In this document: positions 237 through 29,813 of the stretch, in pieces
How the letters are laid out: each line of letters opens with the position of its first letter
How positions within the stretch are numbered: the stretch's first letter is position 1
IMG/VR virus record: IMGVR_UViG_3300037309_000002
Span: 1-31,361 of that record
Length of the DNA stretch: 31,361 nucleotides
Direction: 5' to 3' (one strand)
Origin: a virus
Taxonomy: Duplodnaviria > Caudoviricetes
Made by a program: the position numbers and the translations under genes
The notes under the pieces: generated by a model
Seen by the model: only the letters and a program-made list of their open reading frames with translations
Databases searched by the model: none
What the model was told of the DNA's origin: nothing

Positions 237-488
237 ATGACCACCGTTTCTCCTCAAGACGCGCTTCGGCGTGCAATAGAAATCCTAGGGGGCCAGTCGG
301 ACACGGCTACGGCCCTTGGTCTGCGTCAGTCCACGATCTGGACTTGGTTGAACAAGCAGCGCCGGGCCCCCGCCGAATGGGTCCTGCCGATCGAGCGCGC
401 GACCCGCGAGGCTGGGAACGAAGTCTCCCGCCACGAGCTGCGCCCCGACATCTACCCGGTCGAGCCCAAAATCCAAGCAGCGGAGTGA
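237..488 (+). CDS. cro: Cro-like (YdaS-type) repressor
   Basis: GGQSDTATALGLRQSTIWTW HTH and the C-terminal SRHELRPDIY motif; divergent from cI. Confidence 0.92.
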   Translation: MTTVSPQDALRRAIEILGGQSDTATALGLRQSTIWTWLNKQRRAPAEWVLPIERATREAGNEVSRHELRPDIYPVEPKIQAAE

Positions 489-1768: not shown

Positions 1769-1811
1769 CTTCACTTTGCGTGCCTTCAACCCCCAACCGA
1801 GGATCTACACT

Positions 1812-2534
1812 TTGGCCCGAAAACTCACTGCCGATACCGATGTCTCCGGAACTATGAAGCGGCAGGGCCGCGCGAAGGCCGAGCGCGCCTTCAACAAGGC
1901 GACGGCTGGCGAACCCCAAGCCAAACCGGCCGGCCCGCGCATCGTCACGGAACTGAAATCCAATGGCCCGCGTCCTGTCGATCTGCGCCACCATTATGAG
2001 CAGATCGAGGCGGCGAAGGCCGCGGCGCAATCGAAGGCCGCGGAACACCAAGCCAAGCGCAAGATGGCGAAGGAATGCGGCATCAACCTGAATGCGATCA
2101 GCCTGATCCAGAAGTTCCAGAAGATGGACGAGGACGATCGCGCGTCGACGTTCAAGCAGATGGCCGCGCTGAACGAGGTCATGAACAAAGGCATTCAATT
2201 CGACCTGTTCGGTGCGACCGGCCAACTATCGCGCAAGGCCGAGATTTTCGACGAGGGCTACAAAGCCGGGCTGGCCGCGAAGAGCCAATCGGATTCGGCG
2301 TATGACGCGAACACCACGCACGGGCAAATCTGGCTTCAGGGCTGGCACATCGGGCAGGCCGAGAACATCGAGGCGCTGACCAAGGGTGCGGCGCCGGCCG
2401 CCGCTGAAAGCTCTGGCAGCGATGCAGGCGATGAGCATCCGGACCCGGACGCCCAGAACGTGTGGCCCGACGACGAACAGATCGCCGCGCAAAAGACCAA
2501 TGGCCACGACGCCCAGGCGGAAGCGGCCGCATGA
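1812..2534 (+). CDS. Multidomain protein with GapR-like domain, QFDLF motif and RMF-like domain
   Basis: TTG start at 1812 after GAGGA (alternative ATG at 1854). LRHHYEQIE...AKECGIN...KMDEDDR is GapR/DUF2312-like; EGYKAGLAAKS...AY...WLQGW is RMF-like. Confidence 0.7.
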   Translation: MARKLTADTDVSGTMKRQGRAKAERAFNKATAGEPQAKPAGPRIVTELKSNGPRPVDLRHHYEQIEAAKAAAQSKAAEHQAKRKMAKECGINLNAISLIQKFQKMDEDDRASTFKQMAALNEVMNKGIQFDLFGATGQLSRKAEIFDEGYKAGLAAKSQSDSAYDANTTHGQIWLQGWHIGQAENIEALTKGAAPAAAESSGSDAGDEHPDPDAQNVWPDDEQIAAQKTNGHDAQAEAAA

Positions 2535-3052
2535 AAGTCCTAGCGCTCGACATCGCAACCGTTTCGGGCTGGGCCATCGGCGACGGCATCGCAATGCCGC
2601 GCTCTGGCGTCTTTGGCCTGCCTGGAACCGGCGACAATATCGGGCGCTACCTTCTCCACTGGGCCGAGTGGTTCGAGGCTAAGCTTGAGGCAGAGAAGCC
2701 GACAGAGGTGGTCTTCGAAGCGCCGATCCTGCCGAAGATGACGAACCTCGCGACGACGCGAAAGCTTCAGGGCCTTGCGGGCGTCACCGAAATGATCTGC
2801 GAGGCGCGCGAAATTCCAGTGTTCGAGGCGATGGCGTCCAACGTGCGGCGGCTGTTTCTGGGCCGCTCGTGGCCGAAGAAGGGCGGGCGCGATGGGCTCA
2901 AGATCGCCGTCATGGCCGGGTGCCGCCAACGCGGCTGGAACCCCCTCGACGACAACGAAGCCGACGCGCTCGCCATCCTCGACGTCACCCTGAGCCTGCG
3001 CCGCCAGTCCTACAGCGCCCACAGCTTCATCGAAACCATGAGGGCCGCGTGA
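2531..3052 (+). CDS. RuvC-like Holliday junction resolvase
   Basis: RNase H-fold motifs MKVLALDIATVSGWA, VVFEAP and DDNEADALAI; ATGA coupling. Confidence 0.85.
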   Translation: MKVLALDIATVSGWAIGDGIAMPRSGVFGLPGTGDNIGRYLLHWAEWFEAKLEAEKPTEVVFEAPILPKMTNLATTRKLQGLAGVTEMICEAREIPVFEAMASNVRRLFLGRSWPKKGGRDGLKIAVMAGCRQRGWNPLDDNEADALAILDVTLSLRRQSYSAHSFIETMRAA

Positions 3053-3672
3053 CCGATCTTTTCGCCCTGCGCCCCGCCAATGGATTCGCGGCGATCGTCG
3101 CGGACCCGCCGTGGCATTTCAGGGCACGGACGGCTTTGCAGACGCGCAACTTTCAATGCGCGCGCGATGCCGAGAAGCACTATGCGGTGATGGGGCTGGA
3201 CGAAATCAAGGCGATGCCGGTTAAGGCTGTTGCGGCGAAGGACGCGCACCTTTTCCTTTGGGTGACCGGGCCAGTTCTGCCGCAGGCGTTTGATGTCATG
3301 AAGGCGTGGGGGTTCAAGTATTCCGCCGTCGCCTTTACTTGGATCAAGCTGCGCCGCTCTTTCGATGCGCTGCAATTGCGGGTACTGCCGACGCTCGAGT
3401 CTGACCTTCATGTCGGCTTAGGTCTGACGACACGGAAGAATGCTGAGTTCTGCCTTCTTGGCCGTCGCGGGAACGCCCGGCGCAATGCAAAGAACGTCCG
3501 CGAAATCATTATGTCCCCGGTCCGCGAGCATTCGCGGAAACCTGACGAGGCCTGCGCGCGCGTCGAGCGCTATTGCGACGGCCCCTACCTGGAACTGTTC
3601 GCACGCCAATCGCGCCCCGGCTGGACCGCGTGGGGCAATGAAACCAACAAATTCGACATGGAGGCCGCATAG
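3049..3672 (+). CDS. MT-A70-family N6-adenine methyltransferase (orphan)
   Basis: Motifs IVADPPW, HLFLWV, AWGFKY, HSRKP, YLELFAR and GWTAWGNE; GTGA overlap with the upstream stop. Confidence 0.93.
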   Translation: MTDLFALRPANGFAAIVADPPWHFRARTALQTRNFQCARDAEKHYAVMGLDEIKAMPVKAVAAKDAHLFLWVTGPVLPQAFDVMKAWGFKYSAVAFTWIKLRRSFDALQLRVLPTLESDLHVGLGLTTRKNAEFCLLGRRGNARRNAKNVREIIMSPVREHSRKPDEACARVERYCDGPYLELFARQSRPGWTAWGNETNKFDMEAA

Positions 3673-4103
3673 TGCCCGCCGTTCCTTCCAACCCGCCTTT
3701 GCATTCGAAGCGCCAGCAATCGGTTCTCGATCAGAGCCAAATGATCGACGACGCGCGGCGGATCGCTGCGAAGCCCATGGCGGTCATGCCGGTCGATGTG
3801 GCCAATCGCGACGTCGTGCGCAAGGCGCATGGCCTGCCGAGCGCCGCAAGTGTCGCTGCGGCCGTCACCTCTGGCGCGCGCGGCATCGTTATCGAGAAGA
3901 ACGTGCCGATCCCGACGAAAGCGCGTGGCGGCTCGCTGCCGTTCGATCAAATGGAAGTGGGCGACAGCTTCTTTGTGGTTCGCTCTGCGACCGGCGCGAA
4001 TGCCGCGATTAAAAAAGCGCAAGAGGCGACGAAGTTCAAATTCACCTACCGGACCGTGACCGAAGGCGGCGTCAAGGGCGTGCGAATCTGGAGGTCCGCA
4101 TGA
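3672..4103 (+). CDS. Conserved phage hypothetical protein, probably DNA-binding
   Basis: IEKNVPIP...PFDQMEVGDSFFV...GVRIWR pattern, familiar from small phage proteins; coupled to both neighbours. Confidence 0.7.
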   Translation: MPAVPSNPPLHSKRQQSVLDQSQMIDDARRIAAKPMAVMPVDVANRDVVRKAHGLPSAASVAAAVTSGARGIVIEKNVPIPTKARGGSLPFDQMEVGDSFFVVRSATGANAAIKKAQEATKFKFTYRTVTEGGVKGVRIWRSA

Positions 4104-4465
4104 CGCAAGGCGCGACCTCTAAAGAGCCGACCGCGAGCGATCTGGCGATCGTCGACGCCCTGATTGCCTTGCATGAGGCGGGGAAGCCGACCGGCGCGTC
4201 GTCTTTGCGCGGTTCCATGAACAAGGTTGCGTTTTTGTGGGCAATTCGGCGGCTCGAAGCGGCCAGGTACATCGGCACGAGCCAGTCAGATACCGGCGTA
4301 TCGTATTACGTTCCGCTTCGGGATTCGACGGGCGCGCCATATGACAAAAACGCGGCGCTCTATCAGATCGAGCAGCGGGGCCGGTGGACGATCAAGGTCT
4401 GCCCGCCGCGCTATGCCGCCGGGTCGATCACCTTTCCCCAAAGGCCCATGAGGAGGCGCTCATGA
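4100..4465 (+). CDS. Hypothetical protein, possible winged-helix
   Basis: ATGA overlaps on both sides, GGAGG RBS; AIRRLEAARYI resembles a wHTH segment. Confidence 0.65.
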   Translation: MTQGATSKEPTASDLAIVDALIALHEAGKPTGASSLRGSMNKVAFLWAIRRLEAARYIGTSQSDTGVSYYVPLRDSTGAPYDKNAALYQIEQRGRWTIKVCPPRYAAGSITFPQRPMRRRS

Positions 4466-4710
4466 AGCGCGTCATCGCCCCAGCGCAAGAGCGCAGCCTT
4501 GCGGCTCTCGTCGAGTCCGGCCGGATGAAACGCATCGGCACGCGATTTTTCCCGGACGAACGCGCCCCGCGATCCTTCGGATTCACCGCCGTCATGCAAT
4601 TGGTCGAGCGCCGCCTTGCGCGGATTTCCGATCTTGAGGTGACGTCGATCGAGCCGACGACGGCCGGCCGCCGGATTTATGCAGAAGTTTGTGCGAGGCC
4701 GCAGGCATGA
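4462..4710 (+). CDS. Hypothetical protein, possible winged-helix
   Basis: Start MKRVIAP at 4462 with GGAGG RBS and ATGA overlap. Confidence 0.65.
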   Translation: MKRVIAPAQERSLAALVESGRMKRIGTRFFPDERAPRSFGFTAVMQLVERRLARISDLEVTSIEPTTAGRRIYAEVCARPQA

Positions 4711-4940
4711 CCTCCCGCCGCGATCTGATCCTGTCCGCGCCAATGCCGGGCGAGCGTCCGCTGAAGGGCCTGTCCGAGCTTTCGCTGCGCCTCGCGCGCG
4801 ATATGGCAATGGATCAGATCCACGAGGCCCGGCGCACCGGCGATGACATCCGGCGCGTCGATGGCCTTTTGATCCTCATGCGCGTGCGCGGCGAGTACGC
4901 AACCCGCGTCCACGAGGCCAACCGGGCGAGGGCGGTATGA
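4707..4940 (+). CDS. Hypothetical protein
   Basis: Start MTSRRDL at 4707; ATGA overlaps with both neighbours. Confidence 0.6.
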   Translation: MTSRRDLILSAPMPGERPLKGLSELSLRLARDMAMDQIHEARRTGDDIRRVDGLLILMRVRGEYATRVHEANRARAV

Positions 4941-6364
4941 CTCTGCACCTGGTATCAGACGCGACATCCGCGGAACTGCCGCACGATCTGGAAACAGAGC
5001 AAGCGCTGATCGGCGCGATCTTGGTGCGCGAGACGGTCGAATTCGTCGCCAGCATGGTTAGACCTGAGCATTTTTTCGAGCCGCTCCACGCGCGAATCTA
5101 CGAGGCGCTTTTGGCCTGCAACAAGGCAGGACGCAGGCCCGGCTTAAACTCCATCCGCGCGGAATTCGTCCTCGACCGAACAATGCAGGAGGTCGGCGGT
5201 CTTCGCTATCTCACCAACTGCATGGCGCTGGCGCCGGGTGTTTCAGACCAGACCCTCGAAGCAATGGCCGGCGCGGTCGTGAAGATGGCGGCTCAACGGG
5301 CAATCGTGCGAATGGCGCGGGACATCGAGGCCGTCGCGGCCGATGCGCCCAGCGAATGGGACGTTCAAGACCTCGTCCAGATGGCCGAAGGAAAGTTGCT
5401 GCAAACCAGCGCCGCCTATGCCTCGACACGCAAGCAGCGGTTTGAACCCGCCAGCGTCATTTCGGCCAAAGTGGTCGACGCGCTCTATCAGCCCGAATTG
5501 AACGACAGCGTCTCGTTCGGCTTGACCGAGCTGGATGCCATTACCGCCGGGATGCGGCCGAAGGAAATGATCGTCGTCGGCGCGAGGCCAGGCATGGGCA
5601 AGACCGCCTTCGCAACCGCGATCTCGCTTCGTGTCGCGCGCCAAAAGCGGGCCGTGGCCTTCTTCTCGATGGAAATGGACGCGGCATCGATCATCCGCCG
5701 CGCCCTGACATCGCTGGCCTATCAGCACGGCCACAACATCGCATACGAGGCCCTGCGCAAGGGCGGTCTGACGATCGCGCAGAAGGATGCGCTGGCGTCG
5801 GCAAGCACAGATTTCAATTCGCTGCCGTTCTGGATCCACGAAGGCCGAGACCATAAGCCGAGCGCGCTTGTGGCCGAGGCCCGGCGGATGCAGACGATCG
5901 CGGAGAAGATGGGGACGCCCCTTGGACTGATCGTCGTCGATCACATCCAAAAGGTCGTGCCCGAACGAGACGCACGCGGAAACAAGGTCGCGGAAGTGAC
6001 CGAAGTGTCCGATGCGCTGCAGAAGATGGCGGGCGCGTTGAACTGTCCCGTGATGGCGCTAAGCCAACTCAATCGCGGCGTCGAAGGCCGGGAAGATAAG
6101 CGTCCCGAACTTCGCGACCTGAGAGAGTCCGGCGCCATCGAGCAAGACGCCGACCTCGTCATGCTTCTGCACCGGGAAGCCTACTACCTCTCGAAGAAAG
6201 AGCCCAACAAATGGAAGGAGCAAGAAAAGCATAACGATTGGTATCGGGACTTCGTCCGCGTTCGCTACCAGCTTGACGTGATGATCGCCAAGCAGCGCAA
6301 CGGGGCCGAGGGAACCGTCATGGTCCATTTCGACGCGCCAACCGGCGCGATGAAGGATTGGTGA
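4937..6364 (+). CDS. dnaB: Replicative DNA helicase, DnaB family
   Basis: N-terminal PHDLETEQALIGAIL, Walker A GARPGMGKT, FFSMEM, IVVDHIQ, LSQLNR, DLRESGAIEQDAD and AKQRNG. Confidence 0.97.
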   Translation: MTLHLVSDATSAELPHDLETEQALIGAILVRETVEFVASMVRPEHFFEPLHARIYEALLACNKAGRRPGLNSIRAEFVLDRTMQEVGGLRYLTNCMALAPGVSDQTLEAMAGAVVKMAAQRAIVRMARDIEAVAADAPSEWDVQDLVQMAEGKLLQTSAAYASTRKQRFEPASVISAKVVDALYQPELNDSVSFGLTELDAITAGMRPKEMIVVGARPGMGKTAFATAISLRVARQKRAVAFFSMEMDAASIIRRALTSLAYQHGHNIAYEALRKGGLTIAQKDALASASTDFNSLPFWIHEGRDHKPSALVAEARRMQTIAEKMGTPLGLIVVDHIQKVVPERDARGNKVAEVTEVSDALQKMAGALNCPVMALSQLNRGVEGREDKRPELRDLRESGAIEQDADLVMLLHREAYYLSKKEPNKWKEQEKHNDWYRDFVRVRYQLDVMIAKQRNGAEGTVMVHFDAPTGAMKDW

Positions 6365-7281
6365 TGGCTGGAACCATTTGGGCGAAGTTTTACTGGTCTG
6401 ACTGGCAGAGCGATCCCGCTCTGAAACTCTGCTCACTTGCCGCTCAAGGTTTGTGGATGCGCATGTTGTGCATTGCCGCAGAATCCGACCCGACAGGCTA
6501 CGTTGCTGTCAATGGACGACCACTCGGAGTAACGGACATCGCCCGCTTGGCCGGTGTGACCGAAACTGAGTGCGAACCCTTGCTGCAAGAGCTAGCTCTG
6601 AACGGTGTTTTCTCCCGCACTGCCCGTGGCTGCATCTATTCGCGCCGCTTAGTCCGCGACGCGAAAACCTCCGCGCGCAACCAAAAAAACGGCAAAAGCG
6701 GAGGTAACCCAACCCTTTCAAAACAAAGGGGAATTTCTGAGTGGGTTAACCCCCCGGATAAGCCACCGGATAACCCCCCGGATAAGCCCCATATGCCAGA
6801 AGCCAGAAACCAGAAAGAAAATAAACCACCACCACCTAGCTCTCTGCCGGGCGAGGGCGGAGGCGATGCGGAGTTGACCCGGCGATGCGTGGCCGCGATT
6901 GGTTTCGATTGGTCGAGGCCGCCATCGCAAGCCTGGCTGACTTTGCCGGTCAAAATCGGCCAATGGCTGCGAAACGGTTGCACCGCCGACGACGTGATCG
7001 ACGGCGTTCGGACCGTCATGGCGAAGCGAAAATCGGGCGATTTCCCAAGCTCGCCGGCGTACTTCGACAAGGCGGTTCTCCGGCAGCGCGACGAACGATT
7101 GGCGCTCAACGGCGCAAAGCCGACCGCAGCCGATTGGGGACCGGACGATCCGGCCTGGCGATCGCTCGTCAAGGCCCATCAGGACGGCGTTTGGTTCGAG
7201 GACCAGTGGGGTCCACGGATCGGGCAACCCGGCTGCCGCGTGCCCGGCAAATTCCTCGAAAAACCCCAGGAGGCCGCATGA
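6364..7281 (+). CDS. Phage replication initiator (lambda O-like)
   Basis: N-terminal WAKFYWSDWQSDPALKLCSLAAQGLWMRMLC typical of phage initiators; low-complexity linker containing iterons; adjacent to dnaB with TGATG overlap. Confidence 0.85.
   Translation: MAGTIWAKFYWSDWQSDPALKLCSLAAQGLWMRMLCIAAESDPTGYVAVNGRPLGVTDIARLAGVTETECEPLLQELALNGVFSRTARGCIYSRRLVRDAKTSARNQKNGKSGGNPTLSKQRGISEWVNPPDKPPDNPPDKPHMPEARNQKENKPPPPSSLPGEGGGDAELTRRCVAAIGFDWSRPPSQAWLTLPVKIGQWLRNGCTADDVIDGVRTVMAKRKSGDFPSSPAYFDKAVLRQRDERLALNGAKPTAADWGPDDPAWRSLVKAHQDGVWFEDQWGPRIGQPGCRVPGKFLEKPQEAA
6747..6790 (+). repeat. Putative replication origin: 12-bp tandem iterons followed by an A-rich tract
   Basis: TAACCCCCCGGA / TAAGCCACCGGA / TAACCCCCCGGA / TAAGCCCC, followed by CCAGAAGCCAGAAACCAGAAAGAAAATAAA, inside the initiator linker as in lambdoid ori. 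Confidence 0.75.
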
Positions 7282-7922
7282 GCCAGCCCTTCGACGTGCT
7301 GTGGTGCCGCGCGCCATCGAATTTCGTGGTGCGTGTTGGCCAATCGGGGTCAATCAACGGGGGTCGATACGGGTTCGCGCTGAACGGCCAAATCGGAATC
7401 GCCGCGTACCTGGCAGCCCTTGGCCACGACGTGGTCTGCCCCGAGCATCGGTTCTGGTCGAGGGGCGGTTCGCGCCAAACCACGGGCGGCCCTGTTAGGC
7501 TTGTACGCAGGCCGCTGTGGCCGGGGTATCTCCCAGTGCGGTGGAACGCTCAGACCAGCCTGGGCGGTCACAAAAAAAACGGCCTTCCCGTCGATGCTAA
7601 GGCCGCCCGCTGGTTTGAGCAGGACGCGCCCATCCTTGGCTGGGGCAGAAACCCGGACGGATCGCCATGGCTGATGCCCGACATCGAGGCCGACTTTTGG
7701 CGCAACTGGCGGCACCGCGATCAAGACGAAACTGGAGCCCGATTCCGCTCTGGCGATCTTGTCCGCGCAACCGACGCCAGGTTCGAAGGCCACCGGCTCA
7801 AAATCCGGTTTTCGCGCCCCTCAAAGCGCGGCGGCTGGGAATACGTGGCCGACACCCCGCCGATGCTCGGCATCCTGGCCGAAATGGTCATTCACGAAAA
7901 TGATCTTGCGCTTCCCGCATGA
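7278..7922 (+). CDS. NusG/RfaH-family transcription antiterminator (late regulator)
   Basis: ATG 7278 after GGAGG; NGN motif RRPLWPGYLPV; KOW-like RFRSGDLVRATDARFEG; last gene before the packaging genes. Confidence 0.75.
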   Translation: MSQPFDVLWCRAPSNFVVRVGQSGSINGGRYGFALNGQIGIAAYLAALGHDVVCPEHRFWSRGGSRQTTGGPVRLVRRPLWPGYLPVRWNAQTSLGGHKKNGLPVDAKAARWFEQDAPILGWGRNPDGSPWLMPDIEADFWRNWRHRDQDETGARFRSGDLVRATDARFEGHRLKIRFSRPSKRGGWEYVADTPPMLGILAEMVIHENDLALPA

Positions 7923-21486: not shown

Positions 21487-23594
21487 TCGCGGCCATCTGG
21501 GCTGTCGCTCAAGTTGCTTGGTCCTACGCTGTCGCAGCCGTCACGTGGGCGGGAACCGCGCTTGCGGGTAATGCCTTCGGCGGCGGCATCTGGGGCGCGC
21601 TCACGGCGGCGGTCGCCAACACGGCGCTGTCGATCGGCATCAACGCGCTTCTGTCGTCGTCGCAGAGCCGAAACCCTGGCCCGTCGCCATCGGAGAAGAT
21701 GGTCAACCGGCGCCAGGCCACGCAAAGCCGCACGAAGTCATACGGGCGCGTGCGCGTCGGGCAGACAGTGTTCTTCTGGGCGGCGAAAGCGGGCAAGCGC
21801 TACTACGGCGTGATCCTGAACACGGGCGAAATTCACCAGATCGTCACCCGCTATCTGGACGAGCGCGAGGTGACGCTGAACGGCAGCGGCTTCGTGCAGG
21901 AGTTCGAGTTCTTCGACGACGCGCGGTCGCGGGTTCAGATCCAAGAGTTCCTCGGCGCATCGGGGCAAGCCTCGCCCTCGCTGCTGAATGCGAATTTCAC
22001 GGAATGGACCGACGCGCACGATATGGCCGGGATGGCCGGCGCAGTCATCGTCGCCGAAAATTGCTCGGCCGAGAACTTCGCCACGGTCTATCCCAGCGGG
22101 CGCGAGCCGAACTACACGGCGGTCTTCGACGGCACCAAATGCTACGACCCGCGAACGGCGACGACGGTGTTCACCAAGAACGCCGCGCTGATCCTTGCGG
22201 ACTGGATCACGTCAGAGGATGGGCTGAACCGCGAGGTCGATTGGATCGTCGTTTCGGCGCAGGCCGACATCTGCGACCAGAACGTGACCAACCGCGAAGG
22301 CGCGACTATCAAGCGGTGGGAACTCTGCGGCACCTACTCTTACGACCAAGAGCGCGAATCCGTCCGCGCGGCGATGGGGATCGCGTGCGATGCGTTCTTC
22401 TTCGAGAGCGACGACGGCAAGGTCGGCTTCTATGTCGGCGGATGGCAGACCCCAGATGTCACCATCAAGGCGAGCGATTGCCGGAACATCCGGCTGATCG
22501 AGGGCCAGGAAGGCCCGTCTACGGTCAACGGCTACACCGTCACCTACACCGAGCCTCTGATCGGCTATCGCGAGCAAGAGAGCGCGGCTTATCAAATCGA
22601 CGACGGACAGGCCGAAGAGGTGCTGTCGGCGTCGATCCTGTGGGCACCGAACCATAACCAGGCCGTGCGCCTTGCCAAGCGCATCTTGCTCAATGCCCGT
22701 GCCGAATTCCGCGTCTCTCTAACGCTGAAATTAAGCGGCTGGAAGTTGCGCAAGAAGCGGTTCTTTTTGTTTACGCACGCCGAACTTGGCTTCGACGCCG
22801 TCCCGTTCGAGATTTCCAGCTTCAAGCTTTCCGAAGATGGCCTGTCGATCCAAGTCGAGGCGCGTTCGGTCGCGCAAAGCGACTTCAATTTCGACGCCAG
22901 CACGGAAGAACCGGCCCGCCCACGGAACATCGAGATCGAAGGTTCGAGCGCCGTGGATGCGCCGACCGGCCTCGCCCTGACCAACGTCGTCAACGCGGGA
23001 ACGGTGGCGATCAAGGCCACATGGGACGCGCCGTCGAACGACACGCTGATGCACGATATTCGCTATCGTGTGAGCCCGTCTGGCGATTGGTTTCAGGTCC
23101 CGGTCCCGCAGCGCCAGTATTACCAGTTCACGCCGTCGCTTTCGTCTGGCGTCACCTATGAAGTTCAGGTCCGCGCCAAGCGCCAGACCGGCTACCCATC
23201 GGCCTGGTCAACCGGCGTCACGATCACGACCAGCCTCGGCATCGGCGCACCGTCTGCCCCGTCTGCGTTCACGGCTGTCGATTCCAGCGGCACCGTCACG
23301 CTTCAGGCGACGGCGCCGAACCATCCAAACCACCGCGCCCTGCGGTTCTGGCGGAACTCGTCGGCGTCCTTCGCTGGCGCGACTGACCTCGGCGCGATCT
23401 ACGGCGCCGCCAATTCCGTTGGGACAACGACGAACAGCCCAGGTGGCGGCACTTGGTACTACTACGTGACCTCTGAATTCGACGCATCGGCGCGTTCCTC
23501 AGCCGTAGGACCGCAGTCCGTCACCGTCGCTGGCGGAAGCGATCAACTCGACTTCTCGCAGCCGAACAATTCGCAATACCTGCCCCTGATCTAG
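21474..23594 (+). CDS. Central tail/hub protein (gpJ-like) with C-terminal FN3-like domains
   Basis: Probable TTG start (MPAVVAAIW); YGRVRVG, KCYDPR and NAALILADW; FN3-like APTGL...ATWDAP...LSSGVTYEVQVRA. Confidence 0.85.
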   Translation: MPAVVAAIWAVAQVAWSYAVAAVTWAGTALAGNAFGGGIWGALTAAVANTALSIGINALLSSSQSRNPGPSPSEKMVNRRQATQSRTKSYGRVRVGQTVFFWAAKAGKRYYGVILNTGEIHQIVTRYLDEREVTLNGSGFVQEFEFFDDARSRVQIQEFLGASGQASPSLLNANFTEWTDAHDMAGMAGAVIVAENCSAENFATVYPSGREPNYTAVFDGTKCYDPRTATTVFTKNAALILADWITSEDGLNREVDWIVVSAQADICDQNVTNREGATIKRWELCGTYSYDQERESVRAAMGIACDAFFFESDDGKVGFYVGGWQTPDVTIKASDCRNIRLIEGQEGPSTVNGYTVTYTEPLIGYREQESAAYQIDDGQAEEVLSASILWAPNHNQAVRLAKRILLNARAEFRVSLTLKLSGWKLRKKRFFLFTHAELGFDAVPFEISSFKLSEDGLSIQVEARSVAQSDFNFDASTEEPARPRNIEIEGSSAVDAPTGLALTNVVNAGTVAIKATWDAPSNDTLMHDIRYRVSPSGDWFQVPVPQRQYYQFTPSLSSGVTYEVQVRAKRQTGYPSAWSTGVTITTSLGIGAPSAPSAFTAVDSSGTVTLQATAPNHPNHRALRFWRNSSASFAGATDLGAIYGAANSVGTTTNSPGGGTWYYYVTSEFDASARSSAVGPQSVTVAGGSDQLDFSQPNNSQYLPLI

Positions 23595-29149: not shown

Positions 29150-29590
29150 ATGCTTTGGCATTTGTTGATCGGCGGGATCTCCGCCGGCGCGCTTTGGGCT
29201 GGCTTTACGCTGGCTGGGTTCCGCGGCGCGGTGATCGTCGCCTTTGTTCTGGCGATGCTGTGGGTCTCAGTCCGCGTCGTGCGGTCCTATGACGCCGAGG
29301 CCGAGCTGGCGCGGACCAAGGCGGACCTGGCGCGCGCCGAGTCAACCTTCCGGGATTTCCGGCAAGTTGCCGACCGGGCCGCCGCCGCAGCAGCCGCGAA
29401 GATTGCCGGCATTGAGCAAGCTCGCGCCCAGGCTGAAGCCGCATTGGCCGAGCACCGCCAGCGATCGGCCGTCGAGTTCTCCGCCCTCAAAGACAGGATC
29501 GCCGCCAATGTCCCCTCGCGCCCTCAGTGCGATTACCCTCAGCCTGTCATTGACGGGCTGCACGACGCTCACGCCCGAGCCAGCCGGTAA
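29150..29590 (+). CDS. Inner-membrane spanin (Rz-like)
   Basis: Hydrophobic N-terminus, Ala-rich coiled coil, C-terminal Cys. Confidence 0.75.
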   Translation: MLWHLLIGGISAGALWAGFTLAGFRGAVIVAFVLAMLWVSVRVVRSYDAEAELARTKADLARAESTFRDFRQVADRAAAAAAAKIAGIEQARAQAEAALAEHRQRSAVEFSALKDRIAANVPSRPQCDYPQPVIDGLHDAHARASR

Positions 29591-29813
29591 GGACGCCGAG
29601 CGGGTATTCGCGCCCGTCCAGGCCGCTCTGGCCTGCCCAGCGCCGCCGTTCAGTCTGACGACACCCGCGCCCGTCCCACCGCCGCCCAAGGGCACGGCGG
29701 GCAGCTATCGCGCGCTGCCGGGATACGTCGCCGATCTGCTCGGCTGGATCGCCGACGACCGCGATCGGTCGAAGCGGCGCGAGGCGTGGCATCGGGAAAG
29801 GTGTGGCCGGTAA
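29508..29813 (+). CDS. Outer-membrane spanin lipoprotein (Rz1-like)
   Basis: MSPRALSAITLSLSLTG-C lipobox, Pro-rich; overlaps the 3' end of the Rz-like gene in another frame. Confidence 0.8.
   Translation: MSPRALSAITLSLSLTGCTTLTPEPAGKDAERVFAPVQAALACPAPPFSLTTPAPVPPPPKGTAGSYRALPGYVADLLGWIADDRDRSKRREAWHRERCGR

Follow-up and report, generated by a model that had tools for sequence, protein, structure and literature searches.

The locus and its genes

The window analysed here, by which we mean the whole stretch of 31,361 bases, is an entire virus record with a CheckV completeness of 47%, and its gene order suggests the rightward arm of a phage of the temperate type. The rightward gene run opens with a Cro-like gene and an HTH gene, followed by the fusion ORF that is our subject and then by genes for a RuvC-like nuclease, an MT-A70 methyltransferase, DnaB, a replication-initiator-like protein, an antiterminator-like protein and terminase; the fusion gene sits between the phage repressor switch and DnaB. 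The features referred to below are as follows.

237..488, plus strand: Cro-like HTH gene, first of the rightward gene run
1799..1803, plus strand: GAGGA, ribosome-binding-site-like in sequence, 8 nt 5' of the TTG at 1812
1812..2534, plus strand: GapR-motif-RMF fusion ORF, 240 aa from TTG, member of PHROG 26995
1812..1970, plus strand: N-terminal extension, basic and variable, net charge +6 across P0002 residues 1-43
1971..2192, plus strand: GapR-like domain, residues 40-113, with predicted helices at 41-74, 79-90 and 93-109
2196..2210, plus strand: QFDLF, a motif of the sliding-clamp type (Qx[D/E][L/M]F), within a linker predicted to lack secondary structure
2217..2378, plus strand: RMF-fold helical hairpin, acidic, residues 122-175
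2379..2531, plus strand: C-terminal tail, acidic and low-confidence, variable in length (2-132 residues across homologues)
2531..3052, plus strand: RuvC-like nuclease gene (PHROG 159, E 8e-13)
3049..3672, plus strand: MT-A70 methyltransferase
4937..6364, plus strand: DnaB-like helicase
6358..7281, plus strand: replication-initiator-like protein (weak PHROG matches)
7278..7922, plus strand: antiterminator-like gene preceding the terminase genes (weak match, E 4e-5)

The fusion ORF has a third-position GC of 0.79, and a homologue (P0004) begins at the point equivalent to the TTG at 1812. Read from the ATG at 1854 the ORF encodes 226 aa, which is protein P0002, and residue numbers of the window protein follow this form. 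An ATGA overlap joins its stop to the start of the RuvC-like gene. An earlier note on this DNA had placed the segment LRHHYEQIE from 1983 and QFDLF at 2196-2210, as the sequence bears out; that note also called the protein early, which its gene position suggests. A scan of the window for promoters and terminators gave nothing above chance, and four further rightward ORFs (660-1355, 4100-4465, 4462-4710 and 4707-4940) have no clear match in Pfam or PHROG.

The fusion family is widespread among alphaproteobacterial phages. A phmmer search with the core of the window protein (residues 39-187) returned, at E<=0.001, 128 sequences that each represent a 50%-identity cluster, most of them spanning both domains, and the named relatives come from Mesorhizobium, Microbaculum, Hoeflea, Brucella and Caulobacter. 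The alignment used below (A2) holds 127 sequences, namely 124 of these representatives and three closer relatives, with a median pairwise identity of 25% over the core; it leaves out a fragment (P0012), a protein with another N-terminus (P0115) and a stand-alone RMF fold (P0117), and P0116 was dropped as a PPR false match. When 130 proteins were scanned against Pfam at E<=0.1, RMF was found in 108 and GapR_DNA-bd in 15, one of them above the cut-off by hand count. Three proteins (P0115, P0053 and P0131) carry two copies of the RMF fold each, and because those of P0115 stand behind an unrelated coiled-coil region the fold appears to be a mobile module.

A profile search of one alphaproteobacterial order found fusions in 12 of 401 genomes, two of them already known, with eight candidates scored per genome. 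Across the alphaproteobacterial class, again with eight candidates scored per genome, full-length matches to the fusion profile occur in 3 of 401 genomes, one being the centre genome. GapR-length matches to the family profile are found in 278 of 401 alphaproteobacterial genomes, a tally that takes in two unpublished genomes (G243 and G043) used for no other claim; besides the fusions, the genome matches listed cover almost exclusively profile positions ~18-96. Among cultured phages the fusion is carried by Brucella phage BiPBO1 (gp76) and Caulobacter phage Sansa (gp76, AKU43480.1), and a single-sequence search with the window protein matched no cultured phage. Word-index searches returned 4 and 7 proteins, and none when made with shorter forms. 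An Atlas search (top match 0.90) led to clusters carrying PF10073 and PF04957 on a minority of their members, which are to be taken as leads only, and the RMF part alone gave no match there.

Three parts of one protein

The earlier note had proposed that a GapR-like domain, a clamp motif and an RMF-like domain are joined in one protein, and all three parts are found here and are conserved in a diverse family. The RMF-like part is plain from the window sequence: the ORF matches Pfam PF04957 with E 3.1e-9 and 37.2 bits against a cut-off of 27.9, the family profile matches RMF structures at E 2e-7, and RMF is the top fold match of the window model in both Foldseek and VIA. The NCBIfam rmf cut-off of 40 bits is missed (27.1 for the whole protein, 30.5 for the domain). 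Homology and fold are secure, whilst the ribosome function of RMF is not carried over. Formation of 100S particles needs R3, K5, R11, G16, G23, C29, P30, W40, G43, W44 and R45 of RMF, ribosome binding in E. coli needs four residues including G16, W40 and W44, which are interpreted as structural, and RMF also needs the first five residues of its chain, according to the available part of PMC8126665. The window protein retains 4 of the 11 essential residues (G16, W40, G43 and W44, all in the helix-packing core) and lacks R3, K5, R11, C29 and R45, with a linker standing where RMF has its first five residues. Across the family G16, W40 and W44 are kept in 127, 102 and 94 of 127 homologues, the rRNA-contacting R3, K5 and R45 in 3, 4 and 8, and C29 in 16. 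The 55-residue RMF-like segment has a median charge of -3 and a pI of 5.0, against +7 and 10.9 for E. coli RMF, and in none of the 127 does the net charge reach +3. Being acidic and left with 4 of 11 essential residues, this part is unlikely to act in ribosome hibernation, and the translation control that the earlier note had entertained finds no support here; as three of the four ribosome-binding residues are kept, weak ribosome binding may persist.

The GapR-like domain goes unseen with the window sequence alone, which gives no PF10073 match in Pfam at E<=1 and no GapR chain at E<=10. With the 127-sequence profile, GapR 6cfy is matched at E 4.7e-8 over chain residues 5-76, along with six further GapR chains at E<=5.3e-6. 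In the AlphaFold2 model this part forms a long helix and two shorter ones with pLDDT >90. Out of 48,161 chains compared in VIA, the first four places go to RMF and three GapRs, at Z 5.5-6.3, a range also reached by unrelated helical proteins; 73 of 73 residues of GapR 6cfx align with an rmsd of 3.1 and a modest Z of 5.8. Foldseek, one of the checks that the earlier note had named for both segments, puts RMF first; with the whole model it returned nothing at E<=0.001 and no GapR among its best 50 matches. The family profile also matches RelI (PDB 9sdc), a component of a mycobacterial toxin-antitoxin system (PMC13284704, in part), at E 2e-4 over profile positions 21-72 only, which lie over the GapR helices; this is probably either chance or a remote GapR relative.

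In the available text of PMC7373187 GapR is described as contacting DNA via the backbone, with channel lysines K34, K42, K49, K56, K59 and K66 and an ion pair between E28 and R65, and the channel lysines are given as required for DNA binding (PMC6853979, in part). The window protein retains two of these six lysines (K49 and K66), and keeps the glutamate of the ion pair (E52) with Q89 at the position of R65. Across the family K/R stands at the six lysine positions in 17, 69, 72, 40, 18 and 54% of sequences, and the ion pair positions hold E in 15% and K/R in 24%; at K34, K59 and R65 the 17, 18 and 24% compare with 100% in stand-alone GapR. The family has gained K/R at residues 69, 70 (84%) and 101 relative to 27 stand-alone GapRs, which are presumed to be host copies, and its GapR part is basic throughout (median charge +3). 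It is likely from these residues that the GapR-like part of the window protein still binds DNA; since K34, K59 and R65 are lost family-wide, it may no longer sense overtwist or stimulate topoisomerases. The case for the supercoil sensing proposed earlier is thus weakened, and the window protein, which would work like GapR at most, is not filed here as a GapR. In helix 1, R26, E28, L30 and E31 do not vary among stand-alone GapRs, yet the family has diverged at these positions. A tree built on ~70 columns sets the 27 stand-alone GapRs apart from the fusions as a clade of their own (support 0.998).

Between the two domains the motif is conserved as well. Qxx[LM]F stands directly after GapR helix 3 in 94 of the 127 homologues, against a mean of 2.7 and a maximum of 8 in shuffles, and is absent from 33; by column, Q is found in 119, L/M in 111 and F in 104, and Q115 is as conserved (94%) as the GapR glycine G76 (94%). 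Controls for search bias agree with this, the motif being present in 47 of the 68 homologues still above threshold when it was masked from the search and in 18 of 20 locus proteins less than 60% identical to the alignment. As a further control, none of the 27 stand-alone GapRs has Qxx[LM]F; these proteins stop at about residue 86-89 and the motif corresponds to 91-95. The earlier note had compared QFDLF with a strict clamp consensus, and here the comparison holds in part, as QL[SD]LF occurs in only 5 of 127 homologues, whereas 61 fit Qx[D/E][L/M]F exactly, as does the window motif. The latter is the consensus given for Mor/MuC, where QHDLF and QPDLF of MuC were shown to mediate clamp binding (PMC12867686, in part). 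We infer from the sequence that the fusion protein would bind the clamp. A complex prediction with a stand-in alphaproteobacterial DnaN (38-row alignment) and residues 104-180 scored 0.09 and 0.16, where 0.32 was the threshold, with controls that were unfolded, and carries no weight either way.

Two sets of relatives depart from this layout. A divergent prophage fusion without the clamp motif lies in one genome (G107:C58, region L136:3851-4860), followed by what by eye are acyl-carrier-like, RuvC-like and MT-A70-like genes. Two viral GapR-like relatives without the RMF fold (L013:3875-4321 and L014:3950-4318) close with QAELQF or AELNF, which may be a six-residue clamp motif of the shorter form.

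Gene neighbourhood

The company kept by the fusion gene was tallied over 27 loci, leaving out L006 (a near-duplicate of L005), L010 (a short match) and the GapR-only genes of L013 and L014. A RuvC-like gene lies downstream in 25 of the 27, at a distance of at most 100 bp in 16 and at most 1 kb in 23, and 20 loci have DnaB and 20 a cI-type repressor gene. Sansa has, in this order, SSB, gp76, gp77, methyltransferases and helicase, gp77 (L138:2557-3108) being annotated as a nucleic acid-binding protein and looking by eye like a RuvC-like nuclease. The gp77 of BiPBO1 (L004:6136-6825) likewise looks like a RuvC-like nuclease and is annotated as 'DnaA'; an unannotated 250-aa ORF of that phage (L004:5285-6037) presumably resembles the DnaA C-terminal domain.

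The reverse search covered 18 RuvC-like loci outside the fusion regions, of which five have a GapR-like neighbour, none of these with the motif. An obligate partnership of the RMF fold with RuvC is rejected, none of the 18 having an RMF fold within 1.5 kb. The link of the fusion to RuvC may thus be one of shared ancestry, and it looks as if GapR beside RuvC were the older arrangement, to which motif and RMF fold would have been added together. Among the neighbouring RuvC-like proteins (A10), 7 of 21 have [DESG][LM]F within their last 45 residues (in shuffles 0.9 on average and 5 at most), possibly as degenerate clamp motifs; the last 45 residues of the window RuvC-like protein (2531-3052) hold none.

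Function and comparison with known systems

Our best reading is that the fusion product is a clamp-tethered accessory of DNA architecture in phage replication. The GapR-type oligomer would grip phage DNA without sequence specificity, with each subunit presenting its motif just past helix 3, and with a motif on every subunit the oligomer would therefore bind clamp-loaded, newly replicated DNA avidly. The motifs would hold it on host clamps, placing it next to the phage helicase and resolvase at replication forks and on DNA just synthesised, and the RMF fold would be reused as a protein-contact or stabilising module rather than as a ribosome hibernation factor. That the product forms oligomers on DNA, with QFDLF tethering it to the host beta clamp, and serves phage DNA replication and resolution has in our judgement about an even chance of being right. 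A more elaborate form, in which alphaproteobacterial phages have rebuilt host GapR as a second DNA-encircling ring, linked to the sliding clamp through up to four motifs, and an RMF fold stripped of rRNA contacts provides the hand-off to the co-translated RuvC-like resolvase or a topoisomerase, is rather doubtful.

Other readings have to be weighed against this. The protein could be a clamp-coupled transcription activator in the manner of MuC, activating middle or late promoters of replicated phage DNA and making contact with RNA polymerase by its acidic RMF fold. The motif consensus is shared with Mor/MuC, whose transcription needs the clamp (PMC12867686, in part), T4 DsbA, which has been called a GapR homologue, possibly brings RNA polymerase to late promoters (PMC7824862, in part), and the fusion gene lies downstream of a cro-like switch. 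However, the window has a separate antiterminator-like gene by its terminase genes, albeit a weak match, GapR makes its DNA contacts by the backbone (PMC7373187, in part), and the tightest neighbours are nuclease and replication genes, so that we consider this unlikely.

It is just as unlikely that the protein sabotages the host, its multivalent motifs sequestering DnaN from host Pol III or Hda, or mixed oligomers poisoning host GapR, such that host replication slows in lytic growth. Overexpression of MuC is lethal through tie-up of the clamp (PMC12867686, in part), and the hosts of prophage copies have a second, GapR-length match in 3 of 3 genomes. Mixed oligomers with host GapR are nevertheless made less likely by the divergence of helix 1 and the separate clade of stand-alone GapRs, and a phage that encodes its own DnaB would presumably depend on the host clamp itself.

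There is a smaller chance still that QxDLF is a structural element packing on the GapR oligomer or the RMF fold, and the protein a plain phage nucleoid-associated protein. The spacing of the motif from G76 is near-fixed (39-42 residues in 105 of 112 homologues) and motif and RMF fold almost always accompany each other, but the residues (Q, free, D/E, L/M, F) are conserved in the manner of clamp motifs, anywhere between 15 and 33 residues separate the motif from the RMF fold, and the monomer model leaves the motif block unstructured (mean pLDDT 64) between two domains above 90. That the RMF-like domain binds the 30S subunit and couples DNA replication to translational shutdown is very improbable, for beside the Pfam match, the shared fold and the retained core stand the lost rRNA contacts and N-terminus, the acidic charge and the shortfall against NCBIfam, and in the available part of PMC6746590 RMF is said to occur solely together with short HPF, in gammaproteobacteria.

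The fusion differs from each of the systems it resembles. With GapR (UPF0335, DUF2312; PF10073; 6CFY, 6CFX, 6OZX, 6JYK) it shares full-length profile homology, the three-helix layout, the AKxxG turn and the basic helix 1-2 surface, but the window protein has no Pfam match, has lost K34, K42, K56, K59 and R65 together with the acidic helix-1 surface, and runs on past the end point of stand-alone GapR into a clamp-type motif and an RMF fold. With RMF (PF04957, NF011162; 4V8G, 6H4N, 2JRM) it shares the two-helix fold and the core of G16, G20, W40, G43 and W44, whereas its copy is an acidic, internal domain from alphaproteobacterial phages without the basic N-terminus, C29 or R45. The Mor/MuC family of phage Mu likewise consists of phage proteins that bind DNA and carry a Qx[D/E][L/M]F clamp motif; MuC is, however, a promoter-specific activator with two motifs, the fusion having one after a GapR-type domain (PMC12867686, in part). 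T4 DsbA is a phage-borne GapR homologue according to PMC7824862, whose available text mentions neither clamp motif nor RMF fold, and is likened here by description only.

Singly, the parts are already in print, as phage GapR (PMC12185513 and PMC7824862, both in part), phage RMF folds and phage clamp motifs. Stand-alone phage GapR is represented by ORF28 of Erythrobacter phage R34L1 (PMC12185513, in part), and stand-alone RMF-fold proteins, which are common in phages, by gp60 and gp76 of phage Milano (PMC6588377, in part). Milano has a canonical GapR, gp37, annotated as hypothetical, and two RMF-fold proteins in separate genes (L001:8145-8456, 23451-23591 and 29407-29643). A 2016 paper on GapR reportedly mentions phage homologues. 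The fusion architecture itself is catalogued without function as PHROG 26995, and one metagenomic relative bears the automatic JGI name 'UPF0335 family/ribosome modulation factor'. A literature search, with most subscription papers outside it, found nothing on a GapR-RMF fusion or its clamp motif, and the Sansa genome announcement (PMC4599082) does not mention the fusion.

Counterparts in cultured phages are BiPBO1 gp76 (QIDLF; PHROG 26995, 336 bits) and Sansa gp76 (QFDLF), which have the same architecture and a downstream RuvC-like gene and are annotated as hypothetical or of unknown function. GapR normally locates overtwisted DNA unaided, and if the fusion is wired to the clamp it would represent a different route for targeting a nucleoid protein to replicating DNA, and a second large family beside the recent finding, in MuC, of temperate phages exploiting the host clamp. 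It would also offer a handle on the numerous acidic RMF-fold domains of phages, and should the ring and hand-off reading be true, the product would be a nucleoid protein tethered to the clamp, and the RMF fold, common in phages, would have its first role outside the ribosome. As Sansa grows on C. crescentus, the host in which GapR was characterised, and has the same architecture and motif, this is directly testable.
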